Virus record (IMG/VR): IMGVR_UViG_3300012940_000011
Coordinates: 1-44,171 of that record
DNA: 44,171 bases
Source of the DNA: a virus
Lineage: Duplodnaviria > Caudoviricetes
Strand: one strand, 5' to 3'
Part shown: positions 12,727-39,761 of the stretch, piece by piece
How the letters are laid out: each line of letters opens with the position of its first letter
Position numbering within the stretch: position 1 is the first letter of the stretch
Made by a program: the position numbers and the translations under genes
Notes under the pieces: generated by a model
The model's input: the letters and a program-made list of their open reading frames with translations, nothing else
Told to the model about the DNA's origin: nothing
The model's database searches: none

Positions 12727-13166
12727 CTCGGATAACTCACAAGCACGTCGCGCTGCTCATAGCGGCCGAACCGGACCTTGACGCCCATGTGGATTAACGT
12801 CCCGGAAATCCTCTGTGAGCTTGCGGCGTTCATATGGTCCAGCACGCGGGGATGAAAAAGCAATTCCGGTTCGGGGATATTATGCTGTTTGCAGAAAACC
12901 CCGATTTGCGCGATAGTCTTATTCCAGTCCCGCACGAAAGCGTCCCGTCGCTCGGCGCATTCCAAAAAGCCGATGCTGCCGTTTTCGTTCTGGTAGCCGT
13001 CGAGCGTGGACAGAAATTCTACAACCTCGTCGAGCAATTCCGCGTCGCTGCCGGTGGCTTCACTTTGCAGGCTCACGCCTTGCTGCGCTTCCACGGCTTC
13101 GTCGTGCAGTTTCTTCATACGATCCCGCGCACGTTCGACGGCGTAGCGATGATAAACCCATGTCAT
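12723..13166 (-). CDS. Hypothetical protein
   Basis: ATGA-coupled to both neighbours; GGAG RBS. Confidence 0.7.
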   Translation of the reverse strand: MTWVYHRYAVERARDRMKKLHDEAVEAQQGVSLQSEATGSDAELLDEVVEFLSTLDGYQNENGSIGFLECAERRDAFVRDWNKTIAQIGVFCKQHNIPEPELLFHPRVLDHMNAASSQRISGTLIHMGVKVRFGRYEQRDVLVSYPR

Positions 13167-13399
13167 AGATCATACTCCTGTTGCGGCCGCTCGGCCGAGA
13201 AATGGGCGTCTAGGAGCGGCTGGCACTTGGCGAGAGGTAGAGGCCCGATCCAGCCGTAAACGGCTTTGCCGGTGTGCCAGCGCCCGCCGTGCCATAGAGC
13301 GATTTCCGGCTGGCACCATTCGGCGATTTGCACGCTCTGACATTGCACGAAGACGACATAGCGCCCTTCGGCCTGCGGTTGGCCTACCGAGATTTCCAT
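13163..13399 (-). CDS. Small DUF551-like protein ending QEYDL
   Basis: MEISVGQP..GRY...W....GWIGPLP; paralogue of 18885-19091. Confidence 0.7.
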   Translation of the reverse strand: MEISVGQPQAEGRYVVFVQCQSVQIAEWCQPEIALWHGGRWHTGKAVYGWIGPLPLAKCQPLLDAHFSAERPQQEYDL

Positions 13400-13400
13400 G

Positions 13401-13856
13401 TCAGCCACCGATCTTCGGCCAATAATCGCCCACGGCCCGATCTTCGGCCAATAATCGCTCACCGAATTCCCCGGTTTCCGCCAAGGCCAGATACCGCACG
13501 GCGCGGTCGTGTTGCCGAGCACAATGCTGGATTTCCTTTTTCTTGCGGGCGATGAAGCTCTCTCGGGCAAGCTGGCGTGTCGGGTAGGCGTGGCGGCGAC
13601 CAAGGCCGGCCAGCACGAATTTCTTAAACCTCGCATCGCGATCCCATAGTGGGGCGATCCAGAAACCGGCCGGCGTGCGCTTCACCACGCGATATTCAAT
13701 AACCGAAATCGCAAGCACATCATCGGACATTCGGGCGTTTATTTCCCGGTAAAAATAATGGTTCTCGTGCTCTGCTCGCTCCCCACAATTTTTGCAAGTA
13801 TCAGGGGCCCCGAACACAAAAGCGTGTTGTGGCATTTCTTCGTTTTGCATGGTCAT
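13401..13856 (-). CDS. Hypothetical protein with N-terminal H..CxxC..H motif
   Basis: RBS GGGAGA; body contains VVKRTPAGFW...AYPT..A.ESF.ARK, common in small phage proteins. Confidence 0.65.
   Translation of the reverse strand: MTMQNEEMPQHAFVFGAPDTCKNCGERAEHENHYFYREINARMSDDVLAISVIEYRVVKRTPAGFWIAPLWDRDARFKKFVLAGLGRRHAYPTRQLARESFIARKKKEIQHCARQHDRAVRYLALAETGEFGERLLAEDRAVGDYWPKIGG
13408..13458. repeat. 22-bp direct repeat x2 (period 29)
   Basis: ccgatcttcggccaataatcgc at 13408-13429 and 13437-13458. Confidence 0.9.
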
Positions 13857-13887
13857 TCTCCCTGCGGCCGGCCTACCTGAATTTCCA

Positions 13888-14034
13888 TCACACGACCTTT
13901 CGTTGACGGCGGGCAATGCTGCTCTCACCGTCGCGGAAATACATGCCGCAGCGCCGACATTTGGCGGAAGGGGATTTCCCCTCGAATATCTGGTGGCGGT
14001 GCCATATGAGGCACCAAATCGCCTTGAGGCGCAT
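13888..14034 (-). CDS. 48-aa Cys/His peptide, DUF1660-like (not in ORF track)
   Basis: MRLKAIWCLIWHRHQIFEGKSPSAKCRRCGMYFRDGESSIARRQRKVV*; AGGAG RBS. Confidence 0.65.
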   Translation of the reverse strand: MRLKAIWCLIWHRHQIFEGKSPSAKCRRCGMYFRDGESSIARRQRKVV

Positions 14035-14047
14035 TGTCGTTCTCCTA

Positions 14048-14083
14048 TGGTTGGCAGACTTTTCCCGGTCTGCCAGCGGGGCG
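14048..14083 (-). repeat. 36-bp hairpin repeat copy 1
   Basis: 35/36 identical to 16136-16171; stem TGGCAGAC/GTCTGCCA. Confidence 0.9.
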
Positions 14084-14087
14084 GGGC

Positions 14088-14813
14088 TTAGAAAGCCGGC
14101 TCGTCGCCGCCAAGGTCTTCGGCGCTCGGAGCGTTCGCGGTCGGATCGTAATCGGAATATCCGGCGTAGCTGCCGAATACTTCGTTATTCCCTGGCCCGC
14201 CGGCACCTGCGATGCGTTCACCCTTACGGATAAACAGGCAGTTTTGCAGGTAAGCGGTGACGCCATCCTTCGCGTCCAGCGTCTTGCGGCGAAACGCCTT
14301 GAGGGCGATTGCCGGGACGACATAGGCGCCGGGATAGAACAGGTCTTTGCCCGCCTGCGCGCGTGCGTGCTCTTCGTTCGGGATATCGACGATCTTCCCC
14401 GCTTCGAGACGGGCAAGCTCAATGTCGTATTGCGACGACGCGGTGAGGATGCCGGCGTAGGGCTTGTAAAGCTCCGCGCGCTTCTCGGCTTTTTCCTTGA
14501 TCTTGAAAGCCTCGTCGGAGCCCTTGCCTTGGGCGTCCAATTCCGCCTTCTGGATCGCCCGCTTGCCGGCGGTCGCACCGCTCATGCACGCGAGATAGTA
14601 ATCGCCGGGATTGCCCGAAAACTGTCCAAGCTCGGCCTTGATCCCCTTCACCATGATTTCCACGATAGCGTCGAAATCTTCCTTCTCGATCCCGAAGGTA
14701 CCCGAGAATTTCGGTGTTGCGTTCTGCACGCCGCGCGGTGCCGATTTCGCCGTGATCGACGAGAAAAGCAGACGGGCGGGCTTGACGAGCGTGTAGCGGT
14801 ATGTCTCTGCCAT
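14088..14813 (-). CDS. ssb: Single-stranded DNA-binding protein (DUF2815/gp2.5-like)
   Basis: PKFSGT, FYPGAY, GVTAYLQN.LF...GERI motifs; acidic tail ending in F; follows DUF2800. Confidence 0.8.
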   Translation of the reverse strand: MAETYRYTLVKPARLLFSSITAKSAPRGVQNATPKFSGTFGIEKEDFDAIVEIMVKGIKAELGQFSGNPGDYYLACMSGATAGKRAIQKAELDAQGKGSDEAFKIKEKAEKRAELYKPYAGILTASSQYDIELARLEAGKIVDIPNEEHARAQAGKDLFYPGAYVVPAIALKAFRRKTLDAKDGVTAYLQNCLFIRKGERIAGAGGPGNNEVFGSYAGYSDYDPTANAPSAEDLGGDEPAF

Positions 14814-14887
14814 GGTTACTTCCTTTTGCCCCTTCGTTGGTATGTTTCCCGGCTGGCGCGGGGGCGAAGTGCCGGCCGGGAATTCCG

Positions 14888-16102: not shown

Positions 16103-16135
16103 CGTGAGCCCCTTTGCTGCTTCGTTGTTTCGTCG

Positions 16136-16171
16136 TGGTTGGCAGACTTTCCCCGGTCTGCCAGCGGGGCG
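16136..16171 (-). repeat. 36-bp hairpin repeat copy 2
   Basis: 35/36 identical to 14048-14083. Confidence 0.9.
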
Positions 16172-16177
16172 ACCCGT

Positions 16178-16247
16178 GCGGGGAGCGTCATGGGATTAGC
16201 GTTACCTCTCCCATGATTTTCTTGGTGATACCACTCACCATCCCCGC
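16178..16247 (-). ncRNA. Candidate three-way-junction structured RNA element
   Basis: Three perfect stems: GCGGGGA/TCCCCGC, TGGTGA/TCACCA, TCATGGGA/TCCCATGA. Confidence 0.5.
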
Positions 16248-16259
16248 CGAGCAACCGCA

Positions 16260-17039
16260 TTAACCAGCGAATTCAATCCCCGCCTTTTCCTCGACGGCCT
16301 TGGCGAAGGCTTCGCGCTGATCCTCGGGGATATTGCGGCTGTGCGCCACCTGGCCCTCGGGGATGAACCGCGCAATGATTTCCTTGACAGGCGAAGGATC
16401 GCCCATCTTCACCGCCGCCTGATTGCAGAGCGCGCCGAGATCGGCATCGGTCCACTTGCGCGCCGGCACACTGGCCTTCGCAGCAGCGTCTTCGGCGTCG
16501 CTCTTGGCGGCAGCGGCACGGAAGGCGGCGAATTCGTCGTCTTCGTCAGTCGTCGGCGCCTGGCTCGACGCAGCGCCCATCGTCGCAGAGGCGCCAGCAT
16601 CGGAAGCCGCACCACTCGCCGAGGTGCCAGTGGCAGCGCCGACCGGAAAACCCGGCTTCGGGTCCGGGCGGTTCACGCCCACCTTCATGCGCCAGAGGCC
16701 ATCCTTGGTTTTGCCCTTGGTCGAAGCGTGGAGATCGGCCGACCACGGCCAGCCGTGCGCGTCGATTTCATCAGAAGGGGATGCATCGCTCGTCGCAGTC
16801 AGGCCATTGCCATCCGACGCCTGATTTTCCGGCGCAGATGTTCCGGGACCAGCCGAAACGGGGGCGGTGCCCTGCTTCACACGTGCGGCGACGTTTCCCG
16901 ACACGGCCGCAGGCGACGGTGCGGCCGCAGCGACCGCGACGGATGATGCACCACCGAGAAGAGCATAGACGGCCGCAAGCTGTGCCGCGCTCGTAACCAC
17001 GATGCCAACGTGCATCGGGAAATGATTGCTGTCGTTCAC
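16260..17039 (-). CDS. Ala-rich replication-module protein with a GWPW..LHAS..KTKDGLWR domain
   Basis: GTG start with AGGAG RBS; usual position upstream of DUF2800. Confidence 0.75.
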   Translation of the reverse strand: MNDSNHFPMHVGIVVTSAAQLAAVYALLGGASSVAVAAAAPSPAAVSGNVAARVKQGTAPVSAGPGTSAPENQASDGNGLTATSDASPSDEIDAHGWPWSADLHASTKGKTKDGLWRMKVGVNRPDPKPGFPVGAATGTSASGAASDAGASATMGAASSQAPTTDEDDEFAAFRAAAAKSDAEDAAAKASVPARKWTDADLGALCNQAAVKMGDPSPVKEIIARFIPEGQVAHSRNIPEDQREAFAKAVEEKAGIEFAG

Positions 17040-17040
17040 T

Positions 17041-18672
17041 TCAATTCTCCTTCTGATCTAAAACGCGATGGATCACGTTCATTTTCTCTAGCGCCTTCAC
17101 TAGAATTTTCTCGGAGATTGAGCCGGGGGCGACAAAAATCTCCGCGCTTACCAAATTCTCTTGGCCGAACCTATCGAGGCGGGAGACGGCTTGCTCATTC
17201 TGTGCCGGCACCCAATCGGGTTCTGCCAAGTAGCACCGGGAACAAACCTTTTGCAGCCCATCCAAGCCGGTGCCCGCTGCCTGGATATTGCCGATGAACA
17301 CGCGCACATTATCGCGCATCACGAAATCGTCAACCGCTTTCTGCCGAGCGGCGGCCGATTTTCGTCCGTCGATCCGAACGGTGCCAAAGCGGGACAATTC
17401 CCGCTCGAAAATGTCCAGCACCTCAAGGTGCCATCCAAAAATGGTTAATTTCTCGTCGCTGCCTTCGAGAAAATCTTGGGCATAGGCGGCGATTTGCGGC
17501 GCCAGCGCAACGCCCATGAGACGGCGCACCTCGGCGATATGTCCGAGAATTTCAAAATCCTTGGTGGTCTGAATTTCGTCGATGGAGATATCAAGCAAGC
17601 CCTCGGCGTCGAGCGCCGCTTTCACCGGGCCGTTTTCCTCGCATTTCACGATGGAATAGCGCGGTGGCTTCATGTAGCGCAGCACGTCTTTTTTCTCGTG
17701 GCGGGCCATGATATTCACGCGCAGCCGATTTTGTAGCTCAAGCTCAAGGCTCGTGCTTTCGAGCTTGAACCGCTTGCCCTCTATCGTTTTCATGTCGGCC
17801 TGGCGGTTATAGCGTTCCTTGAATTGATCCTCGCTCATAAAGTCGATTGCTTCCCAATCGAAATGCCGGAAAAGGACGTAGCACTCGCTCGGCCGGTTCA
17901 ACAGGAGCGTGCCGGTCAAGGCCAGGTGCTCGCGGCAATGCCTGGCGATTGCCTTCATTTTGTGCTCACCGTGCTGATATTCTCCGCGCGAATTTCCGAG
18001 CACGGCGCGCGTCGTGAGCGCGTCGATATTTTTCATCTTGTGCGCTTCGTCGCAAATCAGCACGTCCCATTGGTATTTCGAGATCGCCCGGATGATCGCT
18101 GGATTTCTCGCGGCGTCGTAGCTGATAATCTGATAATTCGCCGTGGGGTGGATCCCGTCCTTGACCTTGAGCATGGTTGAAACCTTGCACATGGGGATAG
18201 TGGACCATTCCTCGATCCGCTCGGCCCATTGGAGCCGCACCGACGCCGGCACGATGACAAGCACACGCTGCGCCTCGCGCACGTTGCAATAGACGATTGC
18301 GGTTGGCGTCTTGCCTAGCCCCGGCTGGTCGCCGTCGATCCCACCTTTGCGCGGCAGCAGATAGTCGAGAACAGCGCGCTGGTAATCCCAAAGGTTTTTC
18401 CCCGGCGGGCACCAGCGCGAATAGTCGGTGCCGTCGAGCGCGCGGGACAGGTCGATTTGCTTGCGGTAGGCGCCAAGCTGCGGCGCGTCCGGTTCGGCGA
18501 GATCAGCGAGTGCATAGGGATTGGTGCCCCATAGCACGGCCTTTTCCCGCGACGAAGCGGACGTGCTGAATGTCAGGCCCCGGTAGGCCATGAGATTCGC
18601 AATTTCCTTTTTCTGCGCCGCCGGGACGTGCAGAATGAAATTTGAACCGTTCTCCGTGACTTCCATTTTCAT
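17041..18672 (-). CDS. SNF2-family helicase
   Basis: DQPGLGKT, DEAH, LTGT, GTGLDGLQ, QAVSRLDRFGQ motifs. Confidence 0.92.
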   Translation of the reverse strand: MKMEVTENGSNFILHVPAAQKKEIANLMAYRGLTFSTSASSREKAVLWGTNPYALADLAEPDAPQLGAYRKQIDLSRALDGTDYSRWCPPGKNLWDYQRAVLDYLLPRKGGIDGDQPGLGKTPTAIVYCNVREAQRVLVIVPASVRLQWAERIEEWSTIPMCKVSTMLKVKDGIHPTANYQIISYDAARNPAIIRAISKYQWDVLICDEAHKMKNIDALTTRAVLGNSRGEYQHGEHKMKAIARHCREHLALTGTLLLNRPSECYVLFRHFDWEAIDFMSEDQFKERYNRQADMKTIEGKRFKLESTSLELELQNRLRVNIMARHEKKDVLRYMKPPRYSIVKCEENGPVKAALDAEGLLDISIDEIQTTKDFEILGHIAEVRRLMGVALAPQIAAYAQDFLEGSDEKLTIFGWHLEVLDIFERELSRFGTVRIDGRKSAAARQKAVDDFVMRDNVRVFIGNIQAAGTGLDGLQKVCSRCYLAEPDWVPAQNEQAVSRLDRFGQENLVSAEIFVAPGSISEKILVKALEKMNVIHRVLDQKEN

Positions 18673-18888
18673 TTATTCCGCTCTCGGCATCATCATGGTT
18701 TTATCGAAATTGATATAGAGCACACCGTCTTCCTGCTTCGCCTCGAATTTGTAGTCGAACCAGCCCGCACCGTCCGGCGGGGTGAAAATCCATTCCACGA
18801 ATTGATCCGGCGACGTGAAGGCGCGCATGATCAGCTTCGGGAATTCCGCCTGCGGTCCCGGCGTAAAGCGGAAACCTTCGTCGCTCAC
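18673..18888 (-). CDS. Hypothetical protein
   Basis: GTGA overlap with the upstream gene. Confidence 0.6.
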   Translation of the reverse strand: MSDEGFRFTPGPQAEFPKLIMRAFTSPDQFVEWIFTPPDGAGWFDYKFEAKQEDGVLYINFDKTMMMPRAE

Positions 18889-19091
18889 AGGTCGAATTCC
18901 AGCGCCGGCTTTTCGTTATAGGGCAGCGGCCCGATCCAGCCGGCGACGGTGCCCGCGATAGGCTCTTTGAGATTGTTCAACCAGCCATGACCGCCAGCAA
19001 GCCAAAAGCGAATAACGGTCGGTGCTTCAACGCCGTGCATATAGCAGACATAGTGCCCGGTTTCGCGAGGTGTGCCGGTCTCAATTTTCAC
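18885..19091 (-). CDS. Small DUF551-like protein ending LEFDL
   Basis: GWIGPLP; paralogue of 13163-13399. Confidence 0.7.
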   Translation of the reverse strand: MKIETGTPRETGHYVCYMHGVEAPTVIRFWLAGGHGWLNNLKEPIAGTVAGWIGPLPYNEKPALEFDL

Positions 19092-19786
19092 AGGTCATAC
19101 TCCTGCGCCGTGCTCGCAGCCGGTGGCCTCGGAAGCTGCTCACCCAGGCGAGCCGCCGCGCGGGCTTGGTCCGCCAGCCGCGTAAGCAGCGCCTCGTGAA
19201 CCTCAGGGCCCCACTCGATCAGCATTTGCCGGATTTCGTCCAGCGACCAGCCACCGAATTGCGCGGCGGCAATGATCTTCGCCTTGTCAAGCTGCTCTGC
19301 CGTGTAGCGCCGCGTCCCGCCTTCCGAGCGGGCGACGGGGCCGAGCAAGCCTTGATTCTCCCAATACCGCACGCCGCGCCGCGAGGTGCAACCGGCCCGA
19401 CACATTTCTTCAACGGTGTGATTTCCAGACATAACAACCATCCTTTCTCGCGTTGCCGCAGCTTTCCTAGCGCCCGATACTGCGGTGCCGTGACGGCGCT
19501 TGTCTTCCGCATTTCCCTTGGGCAAATCCCACCTCAAATTTTCGAGATTGACATTTAGCTTATTTCCGTCGCCGTGGCACGCTTCCATCCCCTTCGGTCT
19601 TGGGCCTACAAATGCTTCAAGCACCAGCGAATGAACCGTCCGAACATTTCCGCGCCTAAGCTGCACTTGAAGATATCCGTGCGAGCCGGTGGCCGGCGAA
19701 AGAATTTGTTTTTCTGAACGGACATTACCGAGATTAGAAACCTCGTAACCGGTATATCCGACGCAGGGTTTCCAAATTTCAGTCAC
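19088..19786 (-). CDS. NUMOD4-HNH endonuclease fused in frame to a MerR-family HTH (internal start 19432)
   Basis: EIWKP..GY..YEVSNLGNVRS; VHSLVLEAFVG..P....CHGDGN..N....NLRW; then RGVRYWENQGLL...RSEGGTRRY. Confidence 0.85.
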   Translation of the reverse strand: MTEIWKPCVGYTGYEVSNLGNVRSEKQILSPATGSHGYLQVQLRRGNVRTVHSLVLEAFVGPRPKGMEACHGDGNKLNVNLENLRWDLPKGNAEDKRRHGTAVSGARKAAATRERMVVMSGNHTVEEMCRAGCTSRRGVRYWENQGLLGPVARSEGGTRRYTAEQLDKAKIIAAAQFGGWSLDEIRQMLIEWGPEVHEALLTRLADQARAAARLGEQLPRPPAASTAQEYDL

Positions 19787-20198
19787 CAAAAATCTCCTGC
19801 TCAAATTCTACGAGAGGAACCTTGCTCCAATAATGCACACGTTCCACCACATAAAATTTCTGCAAACGGACAAAATGAAAAGGAAGCCCGGCATAGTCCA
19901 ATTCAAATTCGAGCCGCTTGGGTGATTTCAGTACCGCCGGCCAATGCAAGGTGTGGCCGACCGCGATAGCGAGCGCCGGCCACATGGGCGCCAATTCCTC
20001 GACCATGTAACCCACGCGCGGCTGCCAGTGAGGAAGCCAGGCGTTGACCGCTGCGGCGTTCGGGTCCGTGCGGTGCATCTGCGCCCATTGCGCGACCTTC
20101 TCTTTCCACTCGGCGATGACGCCGGGCCGGTTGCCGGTGGCCTTCATCGCCTTGACGATTGCCCACGTCTCGCCCTGCCAGAATTGCCGGCCGCTCAT
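19779..20198 (-). CDS. Hypothetical protein
   Basis: ATGA-coupled; GAGGA RBS. Confidence 0.65.
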   Translation of the reverse strand: MSGRQFWQGETWAIVKAMKATGNRPGVIAEWKEKVAQWAQMHRTDPNAAAVNAWLPHWQPRVGYMVEELAPMWPALAIAVGHTLHWPAVLKSPKRLEFELDYAGLPFHFVRLQKFYVVERVHYWSKVPLVEFEQEIFGD

Positions 20199-20413
20199 AG
20201 ATTTATATCCTCGATTTCATGAGTATGCCATGCTTGGCGCTGTTGTGCACCGCAACGTTCGCACACTCTATGACGATAGGCTTTCAAAGGCTCATATTTG
20301 ATTTCAGCAGGTCGAGGTGCAGGCATCATCGGTTCGACGACATGAAAGAATAATCCCCATGGCAACCAAGCGTGCCCATAATATTCGCATTTAGCGCGCG
20401 CGTTCGTGCTCAT
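20195..20413 (-). CDS. Small C..GH..CxRCG protein (DUF1660-like)
   Basis: CEYYGHAW...RVCERCG. Confidence 0.6.
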   Translation of the reverse strand: MSTNARAKCEYYGHAWLPWGLFFHVVEPMMPAPRPAEIKYEPLKAYRHRVCERCGAQQRQAWHTHEIEDINL

Positions 20414-22308
20414 AGATCATACTCCCGCTTCGGAATTGCCCATTTGCCTTTCGTCGGTTTCAGGAACGTGAGCGCTTCGTGCTTTGCCAATTGCTTGCGC
20501 ACCAAATCTTTGTCGAGTCCGTGCGTGCCGGCGATTTCCATCACAAGCACCTGTTCGCTCGTCTCTCCACCGAGCCCTTCGAGCACGCGCACAACCTCTT
20601 CAACGCTCGCCCACGAATATCGGCTCCCATTGCTCTTCGGCGTCGCATCGGCGAGCGCCGCGCTGCGCTCAAGCACGATAGAGGGGCCCATTTCCTTGAC
20701 CGCAAAATAACTGATTTCGTCGGACACGTCCGCGTCTTTTTGCTTGCGCACGCGAAATTCCGTTCCGCCCACTTTCAACTTCGTGGAAATCACCGTGTCC
20801 ATGTTGGCATAGAAAGCGCTCGAACCGCGCGCGCCCTTGTTCTGGTCTTTGCCGGTATGGTGGATCGCGAGCACGAAGCACTCGTAATAGCGGGCAAGCT
20901 GCTCCATGAAATTCGTGATCATGCTCGCGTCTTTGGCGGAATTCTCGTCTAGGCCGGTAATCAGGCGCGTGAGCGTGTCGATCACGATCAGCGCGGGCTT
21001 GGCGTTCAATTCGGCGAGATCGGCTTTGACGTGCTCCCATGCGTCGCTATCGGTATAGAACGGCACGCGGTCTTTGATCAGAAACCTATGGTCATTGCGG
21101 AATTCGATATTCTGCCATTCCATCCACGCCGGCCAGCGCTTTTTCGCCGTCGCTACGGGGCCTTCGCCAGCAAGGAAAAGCACGTCATTCTTGACCGGCG
21201 GGGCACCCCATTGGCCGGGGATGCCGAAAGCCAGGCACAAGGCCATGTCCAGCGCGAGGAACGACTTGTAGCTGCCACTCTCGCCGTAGATCATGCCAAT
21301 GCCAGCCGCCGGCAGCACGTTGGGAATGAGCCACGTTGGATCCTGCACGTTGTCGGCGTAGGTGTGCAAGAATTGGATTTTGTCACGTCCACGATCAACC
21401 GGCGCCGGGGGCTCGAATTCCTGCCCGACGAAATTGGAAAAGGCATCGGCGTTCGCCTGAAACCCTTTCACGCCGCCCTCTGTGTCTTCCCCGTAATTCG
21501 CCGCGTTACGGACGATTTGCTCAAGCTCCCAATCATCCCACGGCGGCGAGCAATGAGGATTCCAGTGCTCCCATAGGAGATCGAAGCACGTCCCGGGCGA
21601 AACCGCTTTGTCGAGAATGGACGCGGCCACCTGAAACGCGAGATTGTTGCCGCCGTGCCCTTCAACCGACACGCGGCCGGTCGCCACATAATTCTTGATC
21701 AGGTCCAATGCCCACGCGACATTGCGCGGCTGGTCTGCGTCCGGGTTTTTGTCGAGCCCTAGCGTGTCGGTCTTTTTCCGCTCGGGGACGATTGCGGCCA
21801 TGTGAGAGGGCAGGGGATTGATCGTGCCACCGGGCAGCGCGGTATAGGTGCCGTCCACACGCCCGGGCCCTGCGCGCGTCTTGGAGCCGGGCAGGATCAC
21901 ATAGCCGCCCGAGACCATCTTGCCGTCGCGCATGAAGCCGCCGCGCGTGTCGATCCCGTCCGCTATGCGGCTGGCGGTGCTCGGTCCCTCACCCTTGAAA
22001 TAGACGTGCAAGCCGCCTTTGGGGGTGCGAACCTGGAAAGCCGCGTCCACGGCCTCTTTCACCGCCGGGTCACGTTCCAGCAGCTTGTTCCACCAGTCAA
22101 TGCCGGCCGGGTCGATATCGAAGACGAAAAGCCCGCTCGGGCCGCACGCCACGGCCCAGTTGAAATCGGGGTTGATACGCAACCACTCGGCAATTTGCGC
22201 CGGGTCGTCGCTGGCATCTTTCCAACCGTTCGGTGTTGCCGGGTCTTTCGTGCCCGGCGAACACGGAAAAACCTTGCACCCCCGCAAAATGTCCGGTAAA
22301 TCCCGCAC
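20410..22308 (-). CDS. Bifunctional primase-polymerase fused to an AAA (RepA-like) helicase
   Basis: VFPC..GTKDP, FDID, TPKGGLHVYF, DTRG, GYVILPGS; GESGSYKS Walker A; IVIDTL; HHTGKD..ARGSSA. Confidence 0.9.
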   Translation of the reverse strand: MRDLPDILRGCKVFPCSPGTKDPATPNGWKDASDDPAQIAEWLRINPDFNWAVACGPSGLFVFDIDPAGIDWWNKLLERDPAVKEAVDAAFQVRTPKGGLHVYFKGEGPSTASRIADGIDTRGGFMRDGKMVSGGYVILPGSKTRAGPGRVDGTYTALPGGTINPLPSHMAAIVPERKKTDTLGLDKNPDADQPRNVAWALDLIKNYVATGRVSVEGHGGNNLAFQVAASILDKAVSPGTCFDLLWEHWNPHCSPPWDDWELEQIVRNAANYGEDTEGGVKGFQANADAFSNFVGQEFEPPAPVDRGRDKIQFLHTYADNVQDPTWLIPNVLPAAGIGMIYGESGSYKSFLALDMALCLAFGIPGQWGAPPVKNDVLFLAGEGPVATAKKRWPAWMEWQNIEFRNDHRFLIKDRVPFYTDSDAWEHVKADLAELNAKPALIVIDTLTRLITGLDENSAKDASMITNFMEQLARYYECFVLAIHHTGKDQNKGARGSSAFYANMDTVISTKLKVGGTEFRVRKQKDADVSDEISYFAVKEMGPSIVLERSAALADATPKSNGSRYSWASVEEVVRVLEGLGGETSEQVLVMEIAGTHGLDKDLVRKQLAKHEALTFLKPTKGKWAIPKREYDL

Positions 22309-22334
22309 ACGCTGCTCCCATGAGGCAGTTTGTT

Positions 22335-22372
22335 GAGCCCCCGGACGGTGCCCATGTCGTCCGGGGGTTTTT
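22335..22372 (+). terminator. Intrinsic terminator-like hairpin oriented on the + strand
   Basis: CCCCCGGACG-N10-CGTCCGGGGG-TTTTT. Confidence 0.6.
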
Positions 22373-22377
22373 ATATG

Positions 22378-25368: not shown

Positions 25369-25383
25369 AAATATTCCGTAACG

Positions 25384-25962
25384 TCACAAATCTAGATTTG
25401 CAAGAGTCTTTTTGTCCGGTCGCTGATAAATCGTCACATTGCGGCTTTTGCGATTTTCCACGCGCCACCAGCCGGCGAAGGCATCATGACGGCGGCAATT
25501 GAGCAAGGCGCGCGGAATTCGCGGTACGTCAAATTGCCTGATATTAGGCGCCAATCCGAGCAAGAGCCGCACGGCGATAAAACTATGCGAAACCGGATGC
25601 GCTGGCAAAATGCGCTTGATCCAATCCAAAAGCACGCCCACGGCTTCGGGATCACCTTTTGCCGCATCGGTCACATAGGCCGCAACAAGCTTAGGCGCCG
25701 CTTGCGCCCTGGCATCGCCGAGCGCGTCCAATTGTTCTTGAGCCTTGTCGGCATAGCGTCCGAGATCGAGCACGGCGCTAGGGCTTTCGACAAGCTCGAC
25801 TAGCTGCGCTGCGGTAAGCGGCTGGCCTCGCGAAAGAGCGTGGCGAATTTCCGTGATTGCCTCGCTTGTGTTTTCGTCCAGCCGTAAAACGCCAGCCTTG
25901 TTCATCTTGCGCGCCTTCGCCAATGAAATATGGAATCGCTCACAAAATTCAAAAATGTTCAT
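25384..25962 (-). CDS. Hypothetical protein with possible N-terminal HTH
   Basis: MNIFEFCERFHISLAKARKM resembles excisionase-type HTH; ends NLDL. Confidence 0.65.
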   Translation of the reverse strand: MNIFEFCERFHISLAKARKMNKAGVLRLDENTSEAITEIRHALSRGQPLTAAQLVELVESPSAVLDLGRYADKAQEQLDALGDARAQAAPKLVAAYVTDAAKGDPEAVGVLLDWIKRILPAHPVSHSFIAVRLLLGLAPNIRQFDVPRIPRALLNCRRHDAFAGWWRVENRKSRNVTIYQRPDKKTLANLDL

Positions 25963-29548: not shown

Positions 29549-29558
29549 GAGCGGGATC

Positions 29559-30362: not shown

Positions 30363-30363
30363 C

Positions 30364-30435
30364 ATGGACAAATGGGATGAATTGACGGTGAAGCAGATCG
30401 CCGAGCGGCCGGAAATCACCGGGGACGCCGAATAA
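30364..30435 (+). CDS. Possible 23-aa peptide
   Basis: MDKWDELTVKQIAERPEITGDAE*; GGAG RBS; TAATG overlap with the next gene. Confidence 0.4.
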   Translation: MDKWDELTVKQIAERPEITGDAE

Positions 30436-30854: not shown

Positions 30855-31207
30855 CCGAGAAGACGACCAACCTCCCCGCGACGCGCACCGATCCCGTCGA
30901 GCCCACGCGCGACCTCGCGAAGCTGCCGATGATCTCGGCCGAGCAATACCAGCATGTCGGCCGCTTTGCCGGCGCGCTGGTCATGTCCTGCTTCGAGCAA
31001 ATCGGTGGCCTCCCGCGCATGGCGAATTGGGCGGACGAAAACCCCACGGATTTCTATACCAAACTATTCCCCAAGATGATCTCGCGAAGTCAGCAAGTCG
31101 ATGTTAGTGGCACGTTGACTATCGACGATGCGATTTCGCGTCTTGAGCGGATGGATGAGCCAATTGACGCGGATTTCACCGAAATTCAGCAGCAATACGA
31201 CCTTTAA
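30851..31207 (+). CDS. terS: Putative terminase small subunit, ends QYDL
   Basis: FEQIGG...M..WA..NP..FY.KL.PK pattern; upstream of TerL. Confidence 0.55.
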   Translation: MTEKTTNLPATRTDPVEPTRDLAKLPMISAEQYQHVGRFAGALVMSCFEQIGGLPRMANWADENPTDFYTKLFPKMISRSQQVDVSGTLTIDDAISRLERMDEPIDADFTEIQQQYDL

Positions 31208-31227
31208 CCGGCATAGGAGAACGTGCC

Positions 31228-31536
31228 ATGATACCGAAGAATGGATGGAAGGACATGGAAACGGCGCCAACGGACGGCACCGTAATCATGGCCCGCTACC
31301 ACCCAAAAGACGTGATGGCCGGGAAATTCGACACAAATACTTGGATGGTCCATCCCGTCCAATGGCTCTGCGACGAGCGCGGCAAGAATTGGCAATGGTC
31401 GCTTCCCGGCCGCATGGGCGCGGGAGCCTACGCAGTCGGTTGGATGACTTTCGAGGAATTCCAGCAGGCGCAAGCCGATGAAGAACAACCGCGCCTCGCT
31501 CTCCCGAGCGGCGCTTCGCAGGAATTCGACCTATGA
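31228..31536 (+). CDS. DUF551-like protein ending QEFDL
   Basis: WKDMETAPTDGT...W...GWM. Confidence 0.7.
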   Translation: MIPKNGWKDMETAPTDGTVIMARYHPKDVMAGKFDTNTWMVHPVQWLCDERGKNWQWSLPGRMGAGAYAVGWMTFEEFQQAQADEEQPRLALPSGASQEFDL

Positions 31537-31907: not shown

Positions 31908-32092
31908 AGCCCGGAGACAATTTCACGATTGCCGGCATACACCGCAAGGTTAGAAATGGTAAGCGTCGATGGTGGCAATTCTGGAAGCCTCGGTATATCG
32001 ACGGTCCGCTCAAGGTTTTTCAGGTAGTCAAAATCTTCCCACCACTGAAAGTCCGTCAATGGGAAGACAAATATTTTCGAGGCGAGGAATAA
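31904..32092 (+). CDS. Hypothetical basic protein
   Basis: GGAG RBS; ATGA overlap; RRWWQFWK motif. Confidence 0.55.
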   Translation: MKPGDNFTIAGIHRKVRNGKRRWWQFWKPRYIDGPLKVFQVVKIFPPLKVRQWEDKYFRGEE

Positions 32093-32093
32093 A

Positions 32094-33863: not shown

Positions 33864-33876
33864 GGGAGCATGGGCA

Positions 33877-36012
33877 ATGGCAGGAATTCGTGACAATCTA
33901 GCTCGGCAGGATTTCGAGGAAATCCCGCGCACGCGCTCCAAGACGCCATCGGGCTTCGATAGCGATAGCGATTTTCTTGAGGATATGCGGGCGAAATACG
34001 AATGGGGCTATGGCTTCAACGAGCACAACATCCTCGCCGGCAAGGAAGACGCCAAATTCACAGTCGGCAACCAATGGGATCCGGTCGTTGAGCAGCGCCG
34101 GAAGGATCAGCGCAAGCCCGTCCTGACATTCAACCGCCTGGTCGCCTTCGTCTCGCAAATCGTCGGCAACCGCCTCATGAATGAGACGGAAATCCGCGTG
34201 TACCCCGACAAGGCTGGCACCAAGCCCATCGCGGAAATCCGTGAAGGTATCATTCGCTCGATCTTCAAGAATTCCAACGCCGATTTCGCTCGCGACGAAG
34301 CCGCCAAGTATCAGGTCGTCGGCGGCGAGGGGTATTTCACGCTCGCGGTGGAATACGCCAGTGATGACGTTTTCGAGCAGGAAATCAAGATCAACGCCGT
34401 GACCGATCCCTATTCGGTCGTGATTGACCCGCTCGCTATCGAACCGAGCGGGGAGGATGCCCAATGGGGCTTCGTCGGCGACGATATTCCGCAGCAGGAA
34501 TTCAAGCGTCGCTGGCCTTGGGCTGCCGAGGTTTCCTTCCTCAACGAAAAGCGCTGGAACCAGAGCGGCTTTTGGTTGTCCGAGGATTGCGTTCGCATCG
34601 TGTCCTATTGGCGCATGGTGACGGAAGGCACAAAGGTTCTCGCGCTCTACCAGGACGGCACGGTGCATGACGTGACCGAAATGGAAGAATTCGAGTATAT
34701 CAATTTCGTGGAAACGCGCTCGGACGGCAGTCCGTATATCCGTGAAGTGCCCAAGCGGTTCGCCCGCCTCTATGTGTGCTCGGGCAACGCGATTCTCGAA
34801 GGGCCCTACGATTATCCGATTTCGTCGATCCCGATTTACCGCGTGCCGGGTTGGGAATTGAACGATGGCGAAAAGGTCCACCGTTGGGGCCTTATCCGTT
34901 TCCTGAAAGACCCGCAGCGCCTTCACAATTATTGGCGCTCGACCGTGGCCGAGCAGCTTGTGGCGGCGCCTCGCAACAAGTGGCTCACGACGCCCGACGC
35001 AGTGAAGGGGCATGAGGTGAAATGGCGCCGCGCGCCCACCAGCGATGACCCGTTCCTGTATTTCAACGATGGCGAGCAGCCGCCGCAGCACATTCCGCCG
35101 CCGGGGATCGACGCCGCGTTGGTGAACGAAGCCGCGATCTCGACGCAGGACATGAAGGATATCTCGAATATCCATGAAGCCTCGCTCGGGATGCCGAGCA
35201 ACGAGGTTTCCAAGGTCGCGATCCAGCAGCGCCAGATGGTTTCAGACGTTGGCAGCTACATTTATGTGGACCGGCGTCGCCTGGCCGATCAACGGTGCGC
35301 GAAGAACATCAACGAGCTTATCCCATTCATCTACGACACGCAGCGCACGCTTGCCGTGGTTGGCCGCGACGATAAAACCGTGATGATGACGATCAACGAC
35401 CCGAGCGACCCGAATTCGGACGTGACGGTTGGCAAATACGGCGTCACGGTGAGCGTCGGCCCGGCCAGTGAAACCAAGCGCACGCTCGCGGCCGAGCAGA
35501 TGATGGCTTTCGTGAACGCGATGCCACAAACCGCTGGCGTCGTGATGGACCTCGTGGCCGAGGCACAGGATTGGCCGAAGAGCGGCGAATTCGCGCAGCG
35601 GTTCAAGATGCTCCTGCCGCCGGGCACGATCCCGGAAGACGAAATGACGCCGGAAATGAAGCAGATGCAGGCGCAAAACCAGCAGATGCAGGCGATGCAG
35701 CAGCAGCTTGCGCAGGCGCAGGCCGAAGCCGATCTCAACGCGAAACAGGCCAAGGCCGCGAACGACGAAGCCCGCGCACGGCTCGCCGAGGCGCAAGCCT
35801 ACAAGGCCATTATCGACGCGCAGAGCCGAGCGGCGGACGTGGAGAGCAAAAGCGAAGAGCGCGCGGCCAAGGTGGACGATCAGGAATTCCGCCAGGTCAT
35901 GCAAACGCTCGACCAGCACAATTCCTTGGTTGGCGAAGATCGGGACTTCGACGACCGCAGGGAGGAACGTCAATCCCGAATCATGAACGGAGAACAGGAA
36001 AATGAGCGGTAA
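33877..36012 (+). CDS. Portal protein (P22 gp1-like)
   Basis: GNQW, P.LTFN, G.IR.LKDPQR..NY, S..AIQQRQ, Gln-rich C-terminal barrel. Confidence 0.9.
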   Translation: MAGIRDNLARQDFEEIPRTRSKTPSGFDSDSDFLEDMRAKYEWGYGFNEHNILAGKEDAKFTVGNQWDPVVEQRRKDQRKPVLTFNRLVAFVSQIVGNRLMNETEIRVYPDKAGTKPIAEIREGIIRSIFKNSNADFARDEAAKYQVVGGEGYFTLAVEYASDDVFEQEIKINAVTDPYSVVIDPLAIEPSGEDAQWGFVGDDIPQQEFKRRWPWAAEVSFLNEKRWNQSGFWLSEDCVRIVSYWRMVTEGTKVLALYQDGTVHDVTEMEEFEYINFVETRSDGSPYIREVPKRFARLYVCSGNAILEGPYDYPISSIPIYRVPGWELNDGEKVHRWGLIRFLKDPQRLHNYWRSTVAEQLVAAPRNKWLTTPDAVKGHEVKWRRAPTSDDPFLYFNDGEQPPQHIPPPGIDAALVNEAAISTQDMKDISNIHEASLGMPSNEVSKVAIQQRQMVSDVGSYIYVDRRRLADQRCAKNINELIPFIYDTQRTLAVVGRDDKTVMMTINDPSDPNSDVTVGKYGVTVSVGPASETKRTLAAEQMMAFVNAMPQTAGVVMDLVAEAQDWPKSGEFAQRFKMLLPPGTIPEDEMTPEMKQMQAQNQQMQAMQQQLAQAQAEADLNAKQAKAANDEARARLAEAQAYKAIIDAQSRAADVESKSEERAAKVDDQEFRQVMQTLDQHNSLVGEDRDFDDRREERQSRIMNGEQENER

Positions 36013-37033
36013 AAGCGAGGGCAGCACGCCCGAATTCGACGAATTCGTGGCCTCGGGAGAGGTGGAGGTTGGCGATACCAATCTCGCTTCGCAGGAGGAA
36101 GAACAGCCGAAAAAGGCTGCGCCGCGTCGCGGGCCCCCGAAGCCGGCTGCCAAGGCGGAAGCCGCTGCGCCAGCCGAGGACGATGCCGATCAACAGGGCG
36201 CCGACGATGACGACGACCAGCAGGACGGCGCCGACGAAGGCGAGGAAGGCGACGATCAGCAGGAAGGCGACGAAAAGCCGAAAAAGACGGCGCGCGATCA
36301 TCAGATTGAACGTCTCAAGCGGGAAAAAGCCGAGCTTGCCCGGCAGCTTCGCGAGGCCAGCAACAGCGAGTTGGCCCGCCGGCTGGAAAATCTCGAAAAG
36401 GGCTTGCAGGGCGGAAACGGTGGTGGTAATTCCAACGCCGGGACACCTGAACCGGATCCTACGGATACGGAAAAGTATCCCCTCGGGCACCTCGACGACC
36501 GTTATATCGAGGATAAGCTCGAATGGCTTGCCGAGAAAAAGGCAGCCGAGCGAGCCGATGCGGTCCTGCAACGTCAGCAGGAAAACGAGCGAAACGCTGC
36601 CATTCAACGCGAACAGCAGGAATTGCTCGGGAAGGTCGATGACCTCGCAATACGCGGTTCCGATCTCTACGAAGACTTCCAGGAAAGCGTAGTCGAAGCC
36701 GGTATGCGAGGCGATTGGGATCTCTCCCAAGCGACCTTCGAGGCTGCGCACGAAGCCGAGAACGGCGCGCAAATCCTCTACGAATTGAGCCAGGACAAGA
36801 AGGAAGCGGCCCGCGTGGCCCGCCTTTCTCCTTACCAGCAGATGAAATTCGTGCAGGAGCGTGACGCCGAAATTGGCAAGGGCAAGACGCCGCGTCGCAT
36901 CCCGCGAGCCGGCGAGCCTCCCAAGAACATCGCGCGAGGGGCCAATTCCCGGACGCAGATCAACCCGGCGACCGACAATCTCGACGATTTCGAGAAGGCT
37001 TGGGAAGCCGACGCCAAGAGAGGCAACAGGTAA
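36002..37033 (+). CDS. Scaffolding protein
   Basis: Acidic N-terminus and coiled coils; lies between portal and coat. Confidence 0.8.
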   Translation: MSGKSEGSTPEFDEFVASGEVEVGDTNLASQEEEQPKKAAPRRGPPKPAAKAEAAAPAEDDADQQGADDDDDQQDGADEGEEGDDQQEGDEKPKKTARDHQIERLKREKAELARQLREASNSELARRLENLEKGLQGGNGGGNSNAGTPEPDPTDTEKYPLGHLDDRYIEDKLEWLAEKKAAERADAVLQRQQENERNAAIQREQQELLGKVDDLAIRGSDLYEDFQESVVEAGMRGDWDLSQATFEAAHEAENGAQILYELSQDKKEAARVARLSPYQQMKFVQERDAEIGKGKTPRRIPRAGEPPKNIARGANSRTQINPATDNLDDFEKAWEADAKRGNR

Positions 37034-37042
37034 TTTTCGCGG

Positions 37043-37088
37043 TATCGGGATACTCCGATCCGCTTTTTGAGGAAGGAGTATCCCGATG
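37043..37088 (+). promoter_or_regulatory. RBS-sequestering hairpin in the capsid leader
   Basis: ATCGGGATACTCC (37044-56) pairs perfectly with GGAGTATCCCGAT (37075-87). Confidence 0.75.
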
Positions 37089-38408: not shown

Positions 38409-38429
38409 CCACGGATTCCTCCCCATCCG

Positions 38430-38471
38430 TCCGGGGTGGAGAGGATTTCCGGGGTGGAGAGGATTTCCGGG
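38430..38471 (+). repeat. 18-bp tandem repeat x2.3 in the post-capsid intergenic region
   Basis: tccggggtggagaggatt x2 plus tccggg. Confidence 0.9.
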
Positions 38472-38493
38472 AAATTTCACAGGAGAAGTACAC

Positions 38494-38742
38494 ATGTCCG
38501 ACAATAACGCTCCACTCGGACCGAACGACCGCATTTCAATCATTCGCCGCGACGCGAATGGCGTTGGTACGCCGGGTTCGGTGCCGCCGAACCTTGCGAC
38601 GGGAGCCGCGTTCACGCCCGGCGGGAATATTGCGGACGTAACGCCCACCAATGGCGCTGACAGTGACGGGCCGGCGCGGCTCGCGATCAACGGCATTCTC
38701 GCGATTTTGGAGGCCAACGGCCTCATGGAGCCTTCGGCTTAA
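38494..38742 (+). CDS. Small virion protein (head decoration/fibre-like)
   Basis: AGGAG RBS; C-terminal INGILAILEANGL. Confidence 0.65.
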   Translation: MSDNNAPLGPNDRISIIRRDANGVGTPGSVPPNLATGAAFTPGGNIADVTPTNGADSDGPARLAINGILAILEANGLMEPSA

Positions 38743-38780
38743 TCGCGATCAATCTCGCTCCGTTCTCCGGGCGACGGTTG

Positions 38781-38818
38781 AGGGTACCCCGCCATACCCG
38801 CTTGGCGGGGTACCTTTT
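38781..38818 (+). terminator. Intrinsic terminator
   Basis: GGTACCCCGCCA-N8-TGGCGGGGTACC-TTTT. Confidence 0.8.
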
Positions 38819-38839
38819 CAGTTTGAAAGGAATTGAAAA

Positions 38840-39109
38840 ATGTCGGCGGTGCGCGAACGTTTCAACCCGGTGCTCATGGGTGCCAATTCCTCCTACAGGA
38901 TCGACGGGCCGCACATGGGTGGTTTCCTCGCCAAGACCAGCGGTACGATCACCGTGGCCGGCCGGGACGCCCTCGGCACCAGCGCCGCGACCTTCGTGGA
39001 CGCCATCCCTGTCACCGCTGGCATCTACACACCGATCCCGCTGATTTTTCCGTCGCCTGGCGCGACCGTGACGCTGGCCGGCGGCGCGAGCGGAACGCTC
39101 ATGGTGTGA
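38840..39109 (+). CDS. Small beta-rich virion protein
   Basis: AAAGGA RBS; structural cluster. Confidence 0.7.
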   Translation: MSAVRERFNPVLMGANSSYRIDGPHMGGFLAKTSGTITVAGRDALGTSAATFVDAIPVTAGIYTPIPLIFPSPGATVTLAGGASGTLMV

Positions 39110-39110
39110 T

Positions 39111-39401
39111 ATGCTGATCGCTTGGGCACATCAGCAAATGGCGGCAGATGCGAGGATCCCAATTATCCTCGCTTTCACCGAGGGCAATATTTTGTTGCCC
39201 GATGACGTGGACGGCGCTCCGGACTGGTTTGACCAAGCGGATTTCATACTGACATTTTCCGATGAGGGTCATGTCGAAATGGTATGGACTGACGACCATT
39301 GGGAAGTCGCGGAAGGTGTTTTTCCATCGGCGGACGGTACTGCGATTTTGTCGCAGGGTATTCGCACGATCCCTGCCGAATATTCCGGTGCGGAAATTTA
39401 G
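39111..39401 (+). CDS. Hypothetical protein
   Basis: Tiles the operon; acidic. Confidence 0.55.
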   Translation: MLIAWAHQQMAADARIPIILAFTEGNILLPDDVDGAPDWFDQADFILTFSDEGHVEMVWTDDHWEVAEGVFPSADGTAILSQGIRTIPAEYSGAEI

Positions 39402-39416
39402 AAGGAGAACGTCATA

Positions 39417-39761
39417 ATGTCAAAGCTCACTTGGCCCGCGTGGTTTAGCAGCCCGAAGGGCGACGCATCCGCGATTTTCGAGAAGGCCGAAGACGTGCCG
39501 GCTGGCTGGACCTCGGGCGCTGAAAAGCAGACCGTGGGTGGAAAGCTCGCCAAGGAACCGGCGAAGGAATCGGCGAAGGAACCGGCCGCAGCAGCCCCGG
39601 CGAGCGGCGACGGTGCGCCCGTCGAGCTTGACACGGCCGGGTGGCCTTGGACGGCCGAGCTTCACGCCAGCAGCAAGAGCAAGACCAAGGATGGGCTCTG
39701 GCGGATGAAGGTCGGCGTGCGCCGTCCCGATCCGAAGCCGGGCTATCCGCTCGACCTGTAA
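39417..39761 (+). CDS. Small protein with a GWPW..LHAS..KTKDGLWR domain, ends PLDL
   Basis: AAGGAG RBS; domain shared with 16260-17039. Confidence 0.75.
   Translation: MSKLTWPAWFSSPKGDASAIFEKAEDVPAGWTSGAEKQTVGGKLAKEPAKESAKEPAAAAPASGDGAPVELDTAGWPWTAELHASSKSKTKDGLWRMKVGVRRPDPKPGYPLDL

Follow-up and report, generated by a model that had tools for sequence, protein, structure and literature searches.

A three-residue C-terminal tag on unrelated proteins of an uncultured podophage clade, kept as a peptide and probably used for docking

About one in six proteins in a clade of uncultured podophages, whose hosts are likely to be sphingomonad bacteria, carry the same short C-terminal tag. A clade survey of 17 genomes plus fragments (2,102 genes) found [YF]DL ends in 311 genes belonging to 47 families, and xDL ends in 378 genes. 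Selection on Y/F-D-L as a peptide is strongly supported, and the tag must be terminal, with a free C-terminus. Whatever its reader, the tag is probably a docking tag. The 47 marked families compare with a handful of proteins in known phage docking tails, the clade is widespread, and the tag provides a handle on many orphan genes together. Literature searches on the motif letters, on C-terminal motifs common to phage proteins and on clamp motifs in phages returned no description, with subscription papers mostly outside their coverage.

The window (the whole stretch of 44,171 nt analysed here) represents a 44-kb podophage. Six tails listed in the first-pass annotation were confirmed, namely QEYDL at 13163, LEFDL at 18885, QEYDL at 19088, REYDL at 20410, QQYDL at 31207 and QEFDL at 31536, as were LDL ends at 25384 and 39761 (2 of 59 called genes). 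An EDINL end is located at 20195 as reported but lies outside the tag pattern, and the core originally given as [EQ][YF]DL is more accurately [YFLH]-D-L. The [YF]DL ends, found in 6/59 called genes with 0.018 expected (binomial p 3e-14), are strongly enriched, and in 20,000 draws of 59 random internal sites no tripeptide came up more than 3 times. A six-frame search of 1,955 stop-terminated segments gave no [YF]D[LIMFV]* end other than these six, all are on the local coding strand, and the lone internal EYDL in the window is at 39978.

Five of the tagged genes are on the minus strand. The gene at 13163..13399 (tag codons and stop, 13163-13177) encodes a small beta-type accessory protein of about 78-81 aa, instead of the 157-aa ORF, with a weak match to PHROG 20256; its stop codon overlaps the ATG of the next gene. 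It belongs to family 0, tagged in 60/62 copies in the clade survey, as does the product of 18885..19091 (tag 18885-18899). The ORF at 19088..19804 (Pfam NUMOD4, HNH_3 and MerR_1; tag 19088-19102) joins a NUMOD4-HNH in frame to a MerR-like HTH, which is a separate protein in relatives (median 111 aa), probably has its own start near 19432, and ends in DL in 48/48 family members. A primase-polymerase/AAA_25 helicase (20410..22308; Pfam Prim-Pol and AAA_25; tag 20410-20424) ends in DL in 38/38 members and in 118 of the best 120 database homologues. A likely HTH regulator ending NLDL (25384..25962; tag 25384-25395) is from a family with DL ends in 24/27, and an Atlas search linked it to MerR/HTH clusters at 0.82, as a lead only. 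The remaining three genes are on the plus strand. A putative small terminase (TerS) ends QYDL-TAA at 31207 (tag 31193-31207); its start was corrected to 30851, predicting 118 aa, and the assignment is drawn from its place upstream of TerL, without a family match. No downstream start overlaps this tail, as first noted, and the family is tagged in 42/42 copies. The adjacent gene (31228..31536; tag 31522-31536) has no Pfam match and encodes a small protein which, by eye, we take to be DUF551-like; its family is tagged in 8/8 in the clade survey, and among 10 database matches eight end FDL, one ends FEL and one is a fragment. The protein after the coat gene (39417..39761; tag 39750-39761) ends PLDL-TAA with no overlapping start, and its family ends in DL in 24/25.

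Across the clade, tags occur on the primase-helicase, putative TerS, two HTH proteins and methyltransferases, and are densest in the replication operon. Among accessory genes, 12/15 are tagged between the helicase and MerR-HTH, 16/49 between the polymerase and single-stranded DNA-binding protein (SSB) and 18/46 between TerS and TerL, with only 2/164 in the early interval, 0/79 near lysis and 0/33 after the coat gene. Major structural proteins are untagged, and the portal is also tagged in one sister pair of a quick tree. The tag is confined to the clade among the sequences examined: distant TerS homologues do not carry it, the four phages used for comparison, two being Sphingomonas phages, have 0 tags, and unrelated viral loci totalling 442 kb yielded 3 extra tagged ends, compared with 110 from 491 kb of clade loci. 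When a profile was used to look for helicase loci further afield, it recovered almost only the same set. There is no cultured close relative, with identities of at most 34% for the polymerase and about 31-34% for TerL. Imported or previously untagged genes have gained the tag, and it is unchanged while the helicase diverges to 65% identity.

The first-pass proposal that selection acts on the peptide itself was borne out by codon freedom, synonymous saturation and terminal placement. All six Leu codons (CTG 105, CTA 79, TTG 49, CTT 29, TTA 29 and CTC 20, with TTT once) and all three stops are used, in keeping with the codon variation noted initially. Genes with [YF]D before the last residue finish in Leu 311 times and in another residue 7 times, and between [YF] and Leu the residue is Asp in 311 and another in 7. 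The suggested comparison of synonymous and non-synonymous change showed saturated synonymous pairwise differences in the tag (0.29-0.78), with Asp and Leu nearly fixed; non-synonymous differences at positions -2 and -1 are 0-0.08 in nine families, the exception being 0.21 at -1 in one. The tripeptide is terminal in 311 cases, with 0-1 occurrences at every offset from 1 to 6 residues before the end, and a variable linker usually precedes it. For a methyltransferase encoded in two overlapping frames, the nested-frame partner is tagged in 13/13 closed loci and the main frame in only 6/13, suggesting that one tag per presumed complex is enough. A literature search on M.EcoHK31I found no relevant paper. 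The evolutionary proof is unusually clean and includes double tags in the two overlapping frames. Tag codons within a genome are more alike than expected (p 0.003), and local copying of the junction could explain part of the regional clustering.

The alternative to a peptide function raised at first was that the ends follow from reuse of a Shine-Dalgarno plus ATGA junction; a DNA site was considered with it. Tags end in ATGA/GTGA in 242/311 genes, GGAG lies within the last 22 nt of 142/242 overlapping tags, GGAGTATGATCTATGA is indeed the same at 13163 and 20410, and a copied junction is visible in locus L019, where a duplicate helicase N-domain ends QEFDL. This alternative proved partly right for the preceding Glu, whose codon is mostly GAG and which is present in 199/242 tags ending ATGA/GTGA versus 17/63 non-overlapping tags; the Glu is thus partly the Shine-Dalgarno of the next gene, and the core is reduced to three residues. 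For Y/F-D-L itself it is refuted, and the chance that the tripeptide arose in this way is very remote. The fourth base is A, giving the stop, in 176/176 motif-preceded called starts as opposed to 52% of all starts, degeneracy tracks the genetic code with all three stops used and TGG once, and overlaps without a tag show no such residues. A pattern in which only GGAG and ATGA are kept while Y/F-D-L varies freely is not seen; the residues are kept and the codons vary. Programmed frameshifting or extended anti-Shine-Dalgarno pairing was also considered and dropped on inspection, as Leu and Asp codons vary freely. The prevalence of ATGA/GTGA ends, and the need for the tag to abut the stop codon, would also suit reading at the ribosome, where the tripeptide in the nascent chain would provide a termination context and so adjust release or reinitiation. 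This is improbable, as 15 families contain 63 tags with no overlapping start, among them almost every TerS copy, relatives of the HTH at 25384 mostly have a non-coding gap of about 40-55 nt after the gene, and the same 4-nt overlap occurs without a tag in 544 genes. Moreover, the nested-frame tag is retained even when it no longer abuts a start, and families are all-or-none by protein, independent of junction type.

Three further readings place the reader in the host. The absence of the tag from major structural proteins would be expected if the tag were a degron or adaptor-binding end by which a host protease such as Lon or ClpXP controlled how long middle-phase proteins last. C-terminal Lon degrons of the LarA, FliK and SulA type (x-L/I-L/I/V-H) are similarly read by a terminal hydrophobic residue together with the carboxylate (PMC11882793, PMC8545394 and PMC11986505). 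However, a penultimate or antepenultimate Asp is disfavoured and makes such degrons more resistant (PMC11986505), and here the penultimate Asp is nearly invariant; the last residues are not of the non-acidic kind, Asp standing at -2 in 311/318 [YF]xL ends. No host regulon with the tail was seen (30 loci from 61 host-family genomes comprised 13 from one nuclease family, 3 from the phage contig and otherwise short or chance frames), one tag per methyltransferase pair is common (7/13), and core enzymes needed throughout replication are tagged. Of the two functions first suggested, docking fits the fixed Asp better than a degron, which is unlikely. Another host hub used by this clade only, such as a nucleoid, topoisomerase, RNA polymerase or polar scaffold protein, would agree with a tag that is constant across the diverged clade and with a Tyr/Phe choice on which genome has no effect (no covariation, p 0.34). 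It is less likely still, as a screen of E[YF]DL ends found no host protein with such a free tail, and the single recurring host EFDL end is apparently the final strand of an exonuclease III-like fold, as we presume from the motifs of that family.

The host beta clamp is a better host candidate, though a doubtful one. Here, a shortened, Gln-less clamp motif (positions 4-6 of QLxLx[LF]) would bind subsite 1, and host clamps on phage DNA would carry the helicase, regulators, methyltransferases and terminase of the phage. The initial suggestion of a clamp pocket holds for positions 4-6 of the hexamer and fails at Gln1. Positions 4 and 6 are both hydrophobic, with Y/F/L and the terminal L respectively, in 353/378 xDL ends. 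[FL]DL occupies positions 4-6 in 9/28 readable alphaproteobacterial Hda motifs (QLTFDL, two QIPFDL from identical sequences, three QLVLDL, two QLALDL and a QLVLDL-type read by eye), Asp is the commonest position-5 residue in these (11/28), and PHROGs and Pfam reveal no phage-encoded clamp. The spacing hydrophobic-x-Leu, FDL/LDL in Hda and DNA-acting clients are shared with the clamp motifs QL[SD]LF and QLxLx[LF], including those of Mu MuC/Mor and Caulobacter HdaA; the tag differs in having no Gln1, a dominant Tyr, a fixed Asp and a free C-terminus (PMC11621423, PMC12867686 and PMC3836487). There is precedent in Mu, whose MuC and Mor proteins both work through the host clamp, with DLF the only part of the consensus present in Mor (PMC12867686), and subsite 1 has weak affinity for di- and tripeptides (PMC11621423). 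Against this, 28/28 Hda motifs and most DinB C-termini from hosts (25/30 by regex) have Gln1, while in the tag Gln is six residues from the end in only 11/302, without enrichment, and is not in the 8 commonest residues over 118 primases nor the top 7 over 53 families. QLEYDL would suit a Shine-Dalgarno, yet Gln is rare. Position 2 is L at 0.19, M at 0.09, Q at 0.17 and P at 0.11, the overlapping Shine-Dalgarno favouring codons that end in G. Tyr, the top tag residue, is not seen at position 4 of the host motifs examined, these motifs may be internal whereas the tag must be terminal, and two other Sphingomonas phages lack the tag. Complex prediction pairing the C-terminal 31 residues of the 18885 protein with DnaN from a sphingomonad, on a 32-row alignment, scored 0.22 against a mark of 0.32 without folded controls, and weighs on neither side. 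If the clamp is the reader, a Gln-less motif is used genome-wide and motif scans miss many clients.

A phage replisome protein appears slightly more likely than the host clamp. Tentatively, the reader may be a phage-encoded protein at the phage replication fork with a pocket for the tag, so that [Y/F/L/H]-Asp-Leu tails of unrelated proteins would plug into one site. The founding use would be the primase-helicase tail, as in the tails of the T7 replisome, with regulators, methyltransferases, the small terminase and small accessory proteins co-opting the pocket to sit on new phage DNA. In overlapping genes the tag codons also provide the spacer and start codon of the following gene, which fixes Glu at -4 and would allow the junction to spread by recombination. 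Speculatively, this might amount to a private address code, in which a phage reader with a new tripeptide-carboxylate pocket gathers one-sixth of the proteins of a small lytic phage, spanning replication, transcription, DNA modification, packaging and dozens of orphans, in one replication compartment and genes join via a 16-nt junction of tag, stop, Shine-Dalgarno spacer and start. A phage-encoded reader would make the tag a minimal orthogonal recruitment tag. However, constancy of the tag while the helicase diverges, together with the lack of Tyr/Phe covariation by genome, fits a conserved host pocket equally well, the coat-adjacent protein and the portal of that sister pair are tagged, and for most small clients no DNA-related role is known.

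Known systems share parts of this arrangement. Class II PDZ ligands and SSB C-terminal tails are strictly terminal hydrophobic-x-hydrophobic peptides read by a carboxylate pocket; no PDZ-like reader was found among the 62 phage ORFs, and an SSB tail is a ligand carried by a single hub, while in this clade many clients bear the tail. In T7 the gp4 tail acts on gp5. The acidic tail of T7 gp2.5 binds the front basic patch of the polymerase (PMC12339929). T7 and the present phage both have a family A polymerase, and their helicase-primase and SSB carry short tails with a critical last hydrophobic residue. T7 tails are long, acidic and Phe-ended, whereas here only the SSB has an acidic Phe/Trp end, the primase ends IPKREYDL-like, and its tag is common to dozens of non-replisome proteins. 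With the sliding-clamp-binding C-terminal epitopes of T4/RB69 gp43, gp55 and gp33, too, one terminal peptide recurs on unrelated proteins, attached through a linker that varies (PMC2988020). There, three clients, including the replicative polymerase, are served by a clamp and loader of the phage, in contrast to 47 families, a three-residue core, no clamp or loader gene found among 62 ORFs and 0/37 tagged polymerases here.

Candidate readers were sought among conserved genes that never carry the tag; no recognisable clamp, PDZ or TPR protein is present among the 62 phage ORFs (PHROGs, Pfam). The universal DNA polymerase A (10729..12726, minus strand; Pfam DNA_pol_A; 0/37 tagged) would be the first candidate, and has no clade-only block when set against two outgroups. 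The SNF2 helicase (17041..18672, minus; 0/53) would be placed after it, having an N-terminal domain (residues 7-86) missing from two outgroup helicases; a PDB sequence search with that domain gave no significant match. Split helicases were dropped as a pointer to the reader, the splits being in-frame insertions or one duplicated N-domain. The gp2.5-like SSB (14088..14813, minus; 0/49) has its own acidic-P-x-F tail, and the exonuclease is also tagged in no copy in the clade survey. A near-universal 139-aa protein (19779..20198, minus; 0/47) gave a confident model with weak winged-helix resemblance, no Foldseek match at E 0.001 or better and no usable match in an Atlas search. The universal, largely disordered 259-aa protein encoded at 16260..17039 (minus; 0/52) has three small folded modules (model pLDDT 71.6, pTM 0.33) and is a candidate scaffold; it had no Foldseek match at E 0.001 or better and no significant match in a PDB sequence search, and neither it nor the 139-aa protein, as folded, has a clamp-like structure. 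Separately, positions 16640-16763 and the 39417..39761 gene have a 124-nt module in common.

Unrelated phage proteins share a C-terminal Tyr/Phe-Asp-Leu ([YF]DL) tag, and the signal is real and strong. When window genes were called with our own gene caller, which is blind to the tag, 6 of 59 called genes end in [YF]DL (0.018 expected, p 3e-14) and 8 of 59 in [YFL]DL. In 20,000 random draws, used as a control for the window ends, no tripeptide recurs more than three times. All ends listed in the first-pass annotation are real at their window coordinates, but the boundaries it gave for these genes need three corrections. At window 19088-19804, a NUMOD4-HNH is in frame with a MerR-like HTH and has no intervening stop.

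The 44,171-base record has a 123-nt terminal repeat, and no tRNA genes were found in the window. Structural and packaging genes encode a P22-like portal and coat, terminase and ejection proteins, and replication genes encode polymerase A, an SNF2 helicase, a Cas4-like exonuclease, a gp2.5-like SSB, a resolvase and a Prim-Pol/AAA_25 primase-helicase. The large ejection protein gene includes a 57-nt tandem duplication (window 7207-7320). Database comparisons of the window revealed no close cultured phage relative. The host is probably a sphingomonad, since Sphingomonadales genome bins contain 3 of the 5 genome contigs that match and the endolysin shares 74% identity over 156 residues with that of Sphingomonas phage MMDA13.

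The shared tag extends to related uncultured phages (the clade), as tabulation of their protein ends bears out. Clade loci came from a helicase scan (56 loci, leaving out the weak matches L057 and L058), a TerL scan (42 loci) and the genomes of 16 near-complete relatives. Each of the 16 genomes carries 4 to 10 called genes ending in [YF]DL; by pattern search there are 6 to 12 matches per genome, and the pattern in reverse gives 0 to 3. The clade gene set, without 23 loci inside the fetched genomes and without identical genes, comprises 2,102 genes in 665 families clustered without the last 8 residues of each protein. In this set 311 genes, and 47 families, carry [YF]DL, and 378 genes end in the wider xDL (x being Y in 202, F in 109, L in 42 and H in 10); these counts cover called genes only, and the caller passes over some short or overlapping genes. 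Within large families, tagging is nearly all-or-none. The tag is found in the putative TerS (42/42), the family 0 small accessory proteins (60/62) and family 17 (27/28); a DL end is found in the 25384 HTH (24/27), the 39417 protein (24/25), all primase-helicases (38/38) and all MerR-like HTH proteins (48/48); and no helicase, polymerase, SSB, TerL, scaffold, coat or resolvase is tagged. Carriers are proteins that replicate DNA or act on it, together with small orphans encoded in the replication operon or between TerS and TerL, and almost no early, lysis or morphogenesis accessory genes are tagged. This distribution suggests a role while DNA is being replicated, although local copying of junctions may have contributed to it.

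Selection on the peptide itself, as initially proposed, is strongly supported by the comparison of synonymous and non-synonymous change in the tails. Across nine families, pairwise differences at Asp and Leu amount to 0.29 to 0.78 for synonymous change and to 0 to 0.08 for replacements, apart from a single value of 0.21, and residues -5 to -8 are free to vary in most of them. All six Leu codons are in use at the Leu position, where Phe appears once. Among 631 distinct 9-mers that could specify [YF]DL when both strands are read, a stop comes next in 302 (TGA 246, TAA 37, TAG 19) and TGG in one. The motif occurs 311 times at the very end and at most once at each of the next six offsets. Starts following the motif have A as the fourth base, creating the stop, in 176/176 cases, compared with 1,095/2,102 for all starts. 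The first-pass annotation had also considered a by-product of a reused Shine-Dalgarno and ATGA junction. This fails for Tyr/Phe-Asp-Leu, given 63 tags without overlap in 15 families and 544 untagged genes that have the same overlap and never such an ending, and a by-product is exceedingly improbable. It holds in part for Glu at -4, which is present in 82% of overlapping tags, 27% of non-overlapping tags and 21% of untagged overlaps and is therefore partly Shine-Dalgarno and partly preferred. The primase-helicase aromatic codon (window 20419-20421) has zero synonymous variation in 38 sequences, the next two codons being saturated, and is under an unexplained nucleotide constraint.

Three cases show that tags are gained and thereafter kept. 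In some relatives a C5 methyltransferase gene (Pfam PF00145) encloses a second long open frame, an arrangement like that of M.EcoHK31I with its alpha and beta subunits. Thirteen such loci with the gene end present carry single or double tags (L003, L023, L025, L029, L034, L041, L043, L046, L049, L103 and L105, scored by script, and L001 and L038, scored separately). The nested frame ends in [YF]DL in 13/13. In 7 of them the main frame ends 7 nt before the nested one and is untagged; in 6 it is 17-20 nt longer and has its own tag, and here the nested tag is retained though no longer touching a start. Among the best 120 main-frame homologues in the database, judged without genomic context, 23 of the 83 with a visible native end are tagged, and more distant ones are untagged. 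A quick tree places a single gain in the portal, within a nested sister pair. At L019:6673-6870 the N-terminal domain of the helicase is duplicated as a 65-aa protein that ends QPLQEFDL and lies upstream of an intact helicase. The N-domain of the SNF2 helicase (window 17041-18672) is missing from two outgroups. Helicases of ~883 aa with an in-frame ~340-aa insertion at residue 121 (L025:7414-10065, L029:3194-5851, L041:8618-11269, L046:8621-11272), and further ones with a break near residues 200-209 or 264 (L042, L045, L105), may be intein-like.

Of 150 TerS-like representatives, 12 end in DL and one in YDI, all close or clade-like; the remainder have acidic tails that lack a clamp motif. Searching every viral contig for a single spelling of the junction yielded 124 stretches. 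Among loci of at least 5 kb, the 38 unrelated ones (442 kb in total) contain 3 further ends, and the 32 clade loci (491 kb, with some mutual overlap) contain 110. Sphingomonas phages MMDA13 and Scott, Sinorhizobium phage phiM5 and ctvy9321 have no tag ends. E[YF]DL-stop is matched in 24/61 host-family genomes. In 13 (within L218-L237) of the 30 host-family loci read, the match is one nuclease, its fold apparently ending at EFDL, which we take from its motifs to be exonuclease III-like. It is the only recurring host match and occurs in many host-family genomes.

Shared docking tails are of an already known kind, and the T7 gp4 tail is a precedent for a phage reader. A literature search for the tag motif, shared C-terminal phage tails and phage clamp motifs found no description of the motif, its breadth or the dual-use junction. 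We tentatively favour a phage-encoded reader. Such a reader is favoured by the restriction of the tag to the clade, by the universal replisome proteins being untagged, and by the precedents of shared docking tails in T4 (PMC2988020) and replisome tails in T7 (PMC12339929). The lack of visible tag drift across genomes counts against a phage reader, as does the outcome of modelling two universal unknown proteins with fold searches, together with outgroup comparison, which found no candidate pocket.

Reading by the host clamp is rather unlikely, though FDL and LDL equal positions 4-6 of alphaproteobacterial Hda motifs. The literature also describes host clamp use in Mu transcription, Mor having DLF only (PMC12867686), dependence of HdaA on QFKLPL (PMC3836487) and binding of short peptides at subsite 1 (PMC11621423). 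However, pentamer positions 1, 4 and 5 are the most important (10.64898/2026.05.27.728225), and the Gln kept in host motifs is not kept in the tag. That the tag is a degron is doubtful; Lon reads terminal hydrophobic carboxylates (PMC11882793 and PMC8545394), but the invariant penultimate Asp argues against it (PMC11986505). Another host hub as reader and a ribosome-context role are both improbable, and any other explanation has a slim chance.

Several further features were observed. The DDEFAAF motif of the universal, largely disordered 259-aa protein (window 16260..17039, minus strand) recurs in a tagged family-17 tail in genome G014, and the scaffold family (window 36002-37033) has internal QILYDL/QILLDL in 18/33. 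A 124-nt pair with 79% complementarity (window 16640-16763 and 39630-39753) encodes one small Trp-rich module shared by two proteins, an early universal one and a tagged late one in which it is optional. A second tail class (window 14088, 10214, 28293, 14888), comprising SSB DEPAF, HNH family DDCPF, family 30 PVPF-x and exonuclease xGF, resembles SSB C-terminal tails. A recurring near-palindromic CGTTACGTAAG-like site that closely follows the stop codon of the 25384 HTH gene (window 25370-25385, with matching sites in G001-G016) is a possible operator.
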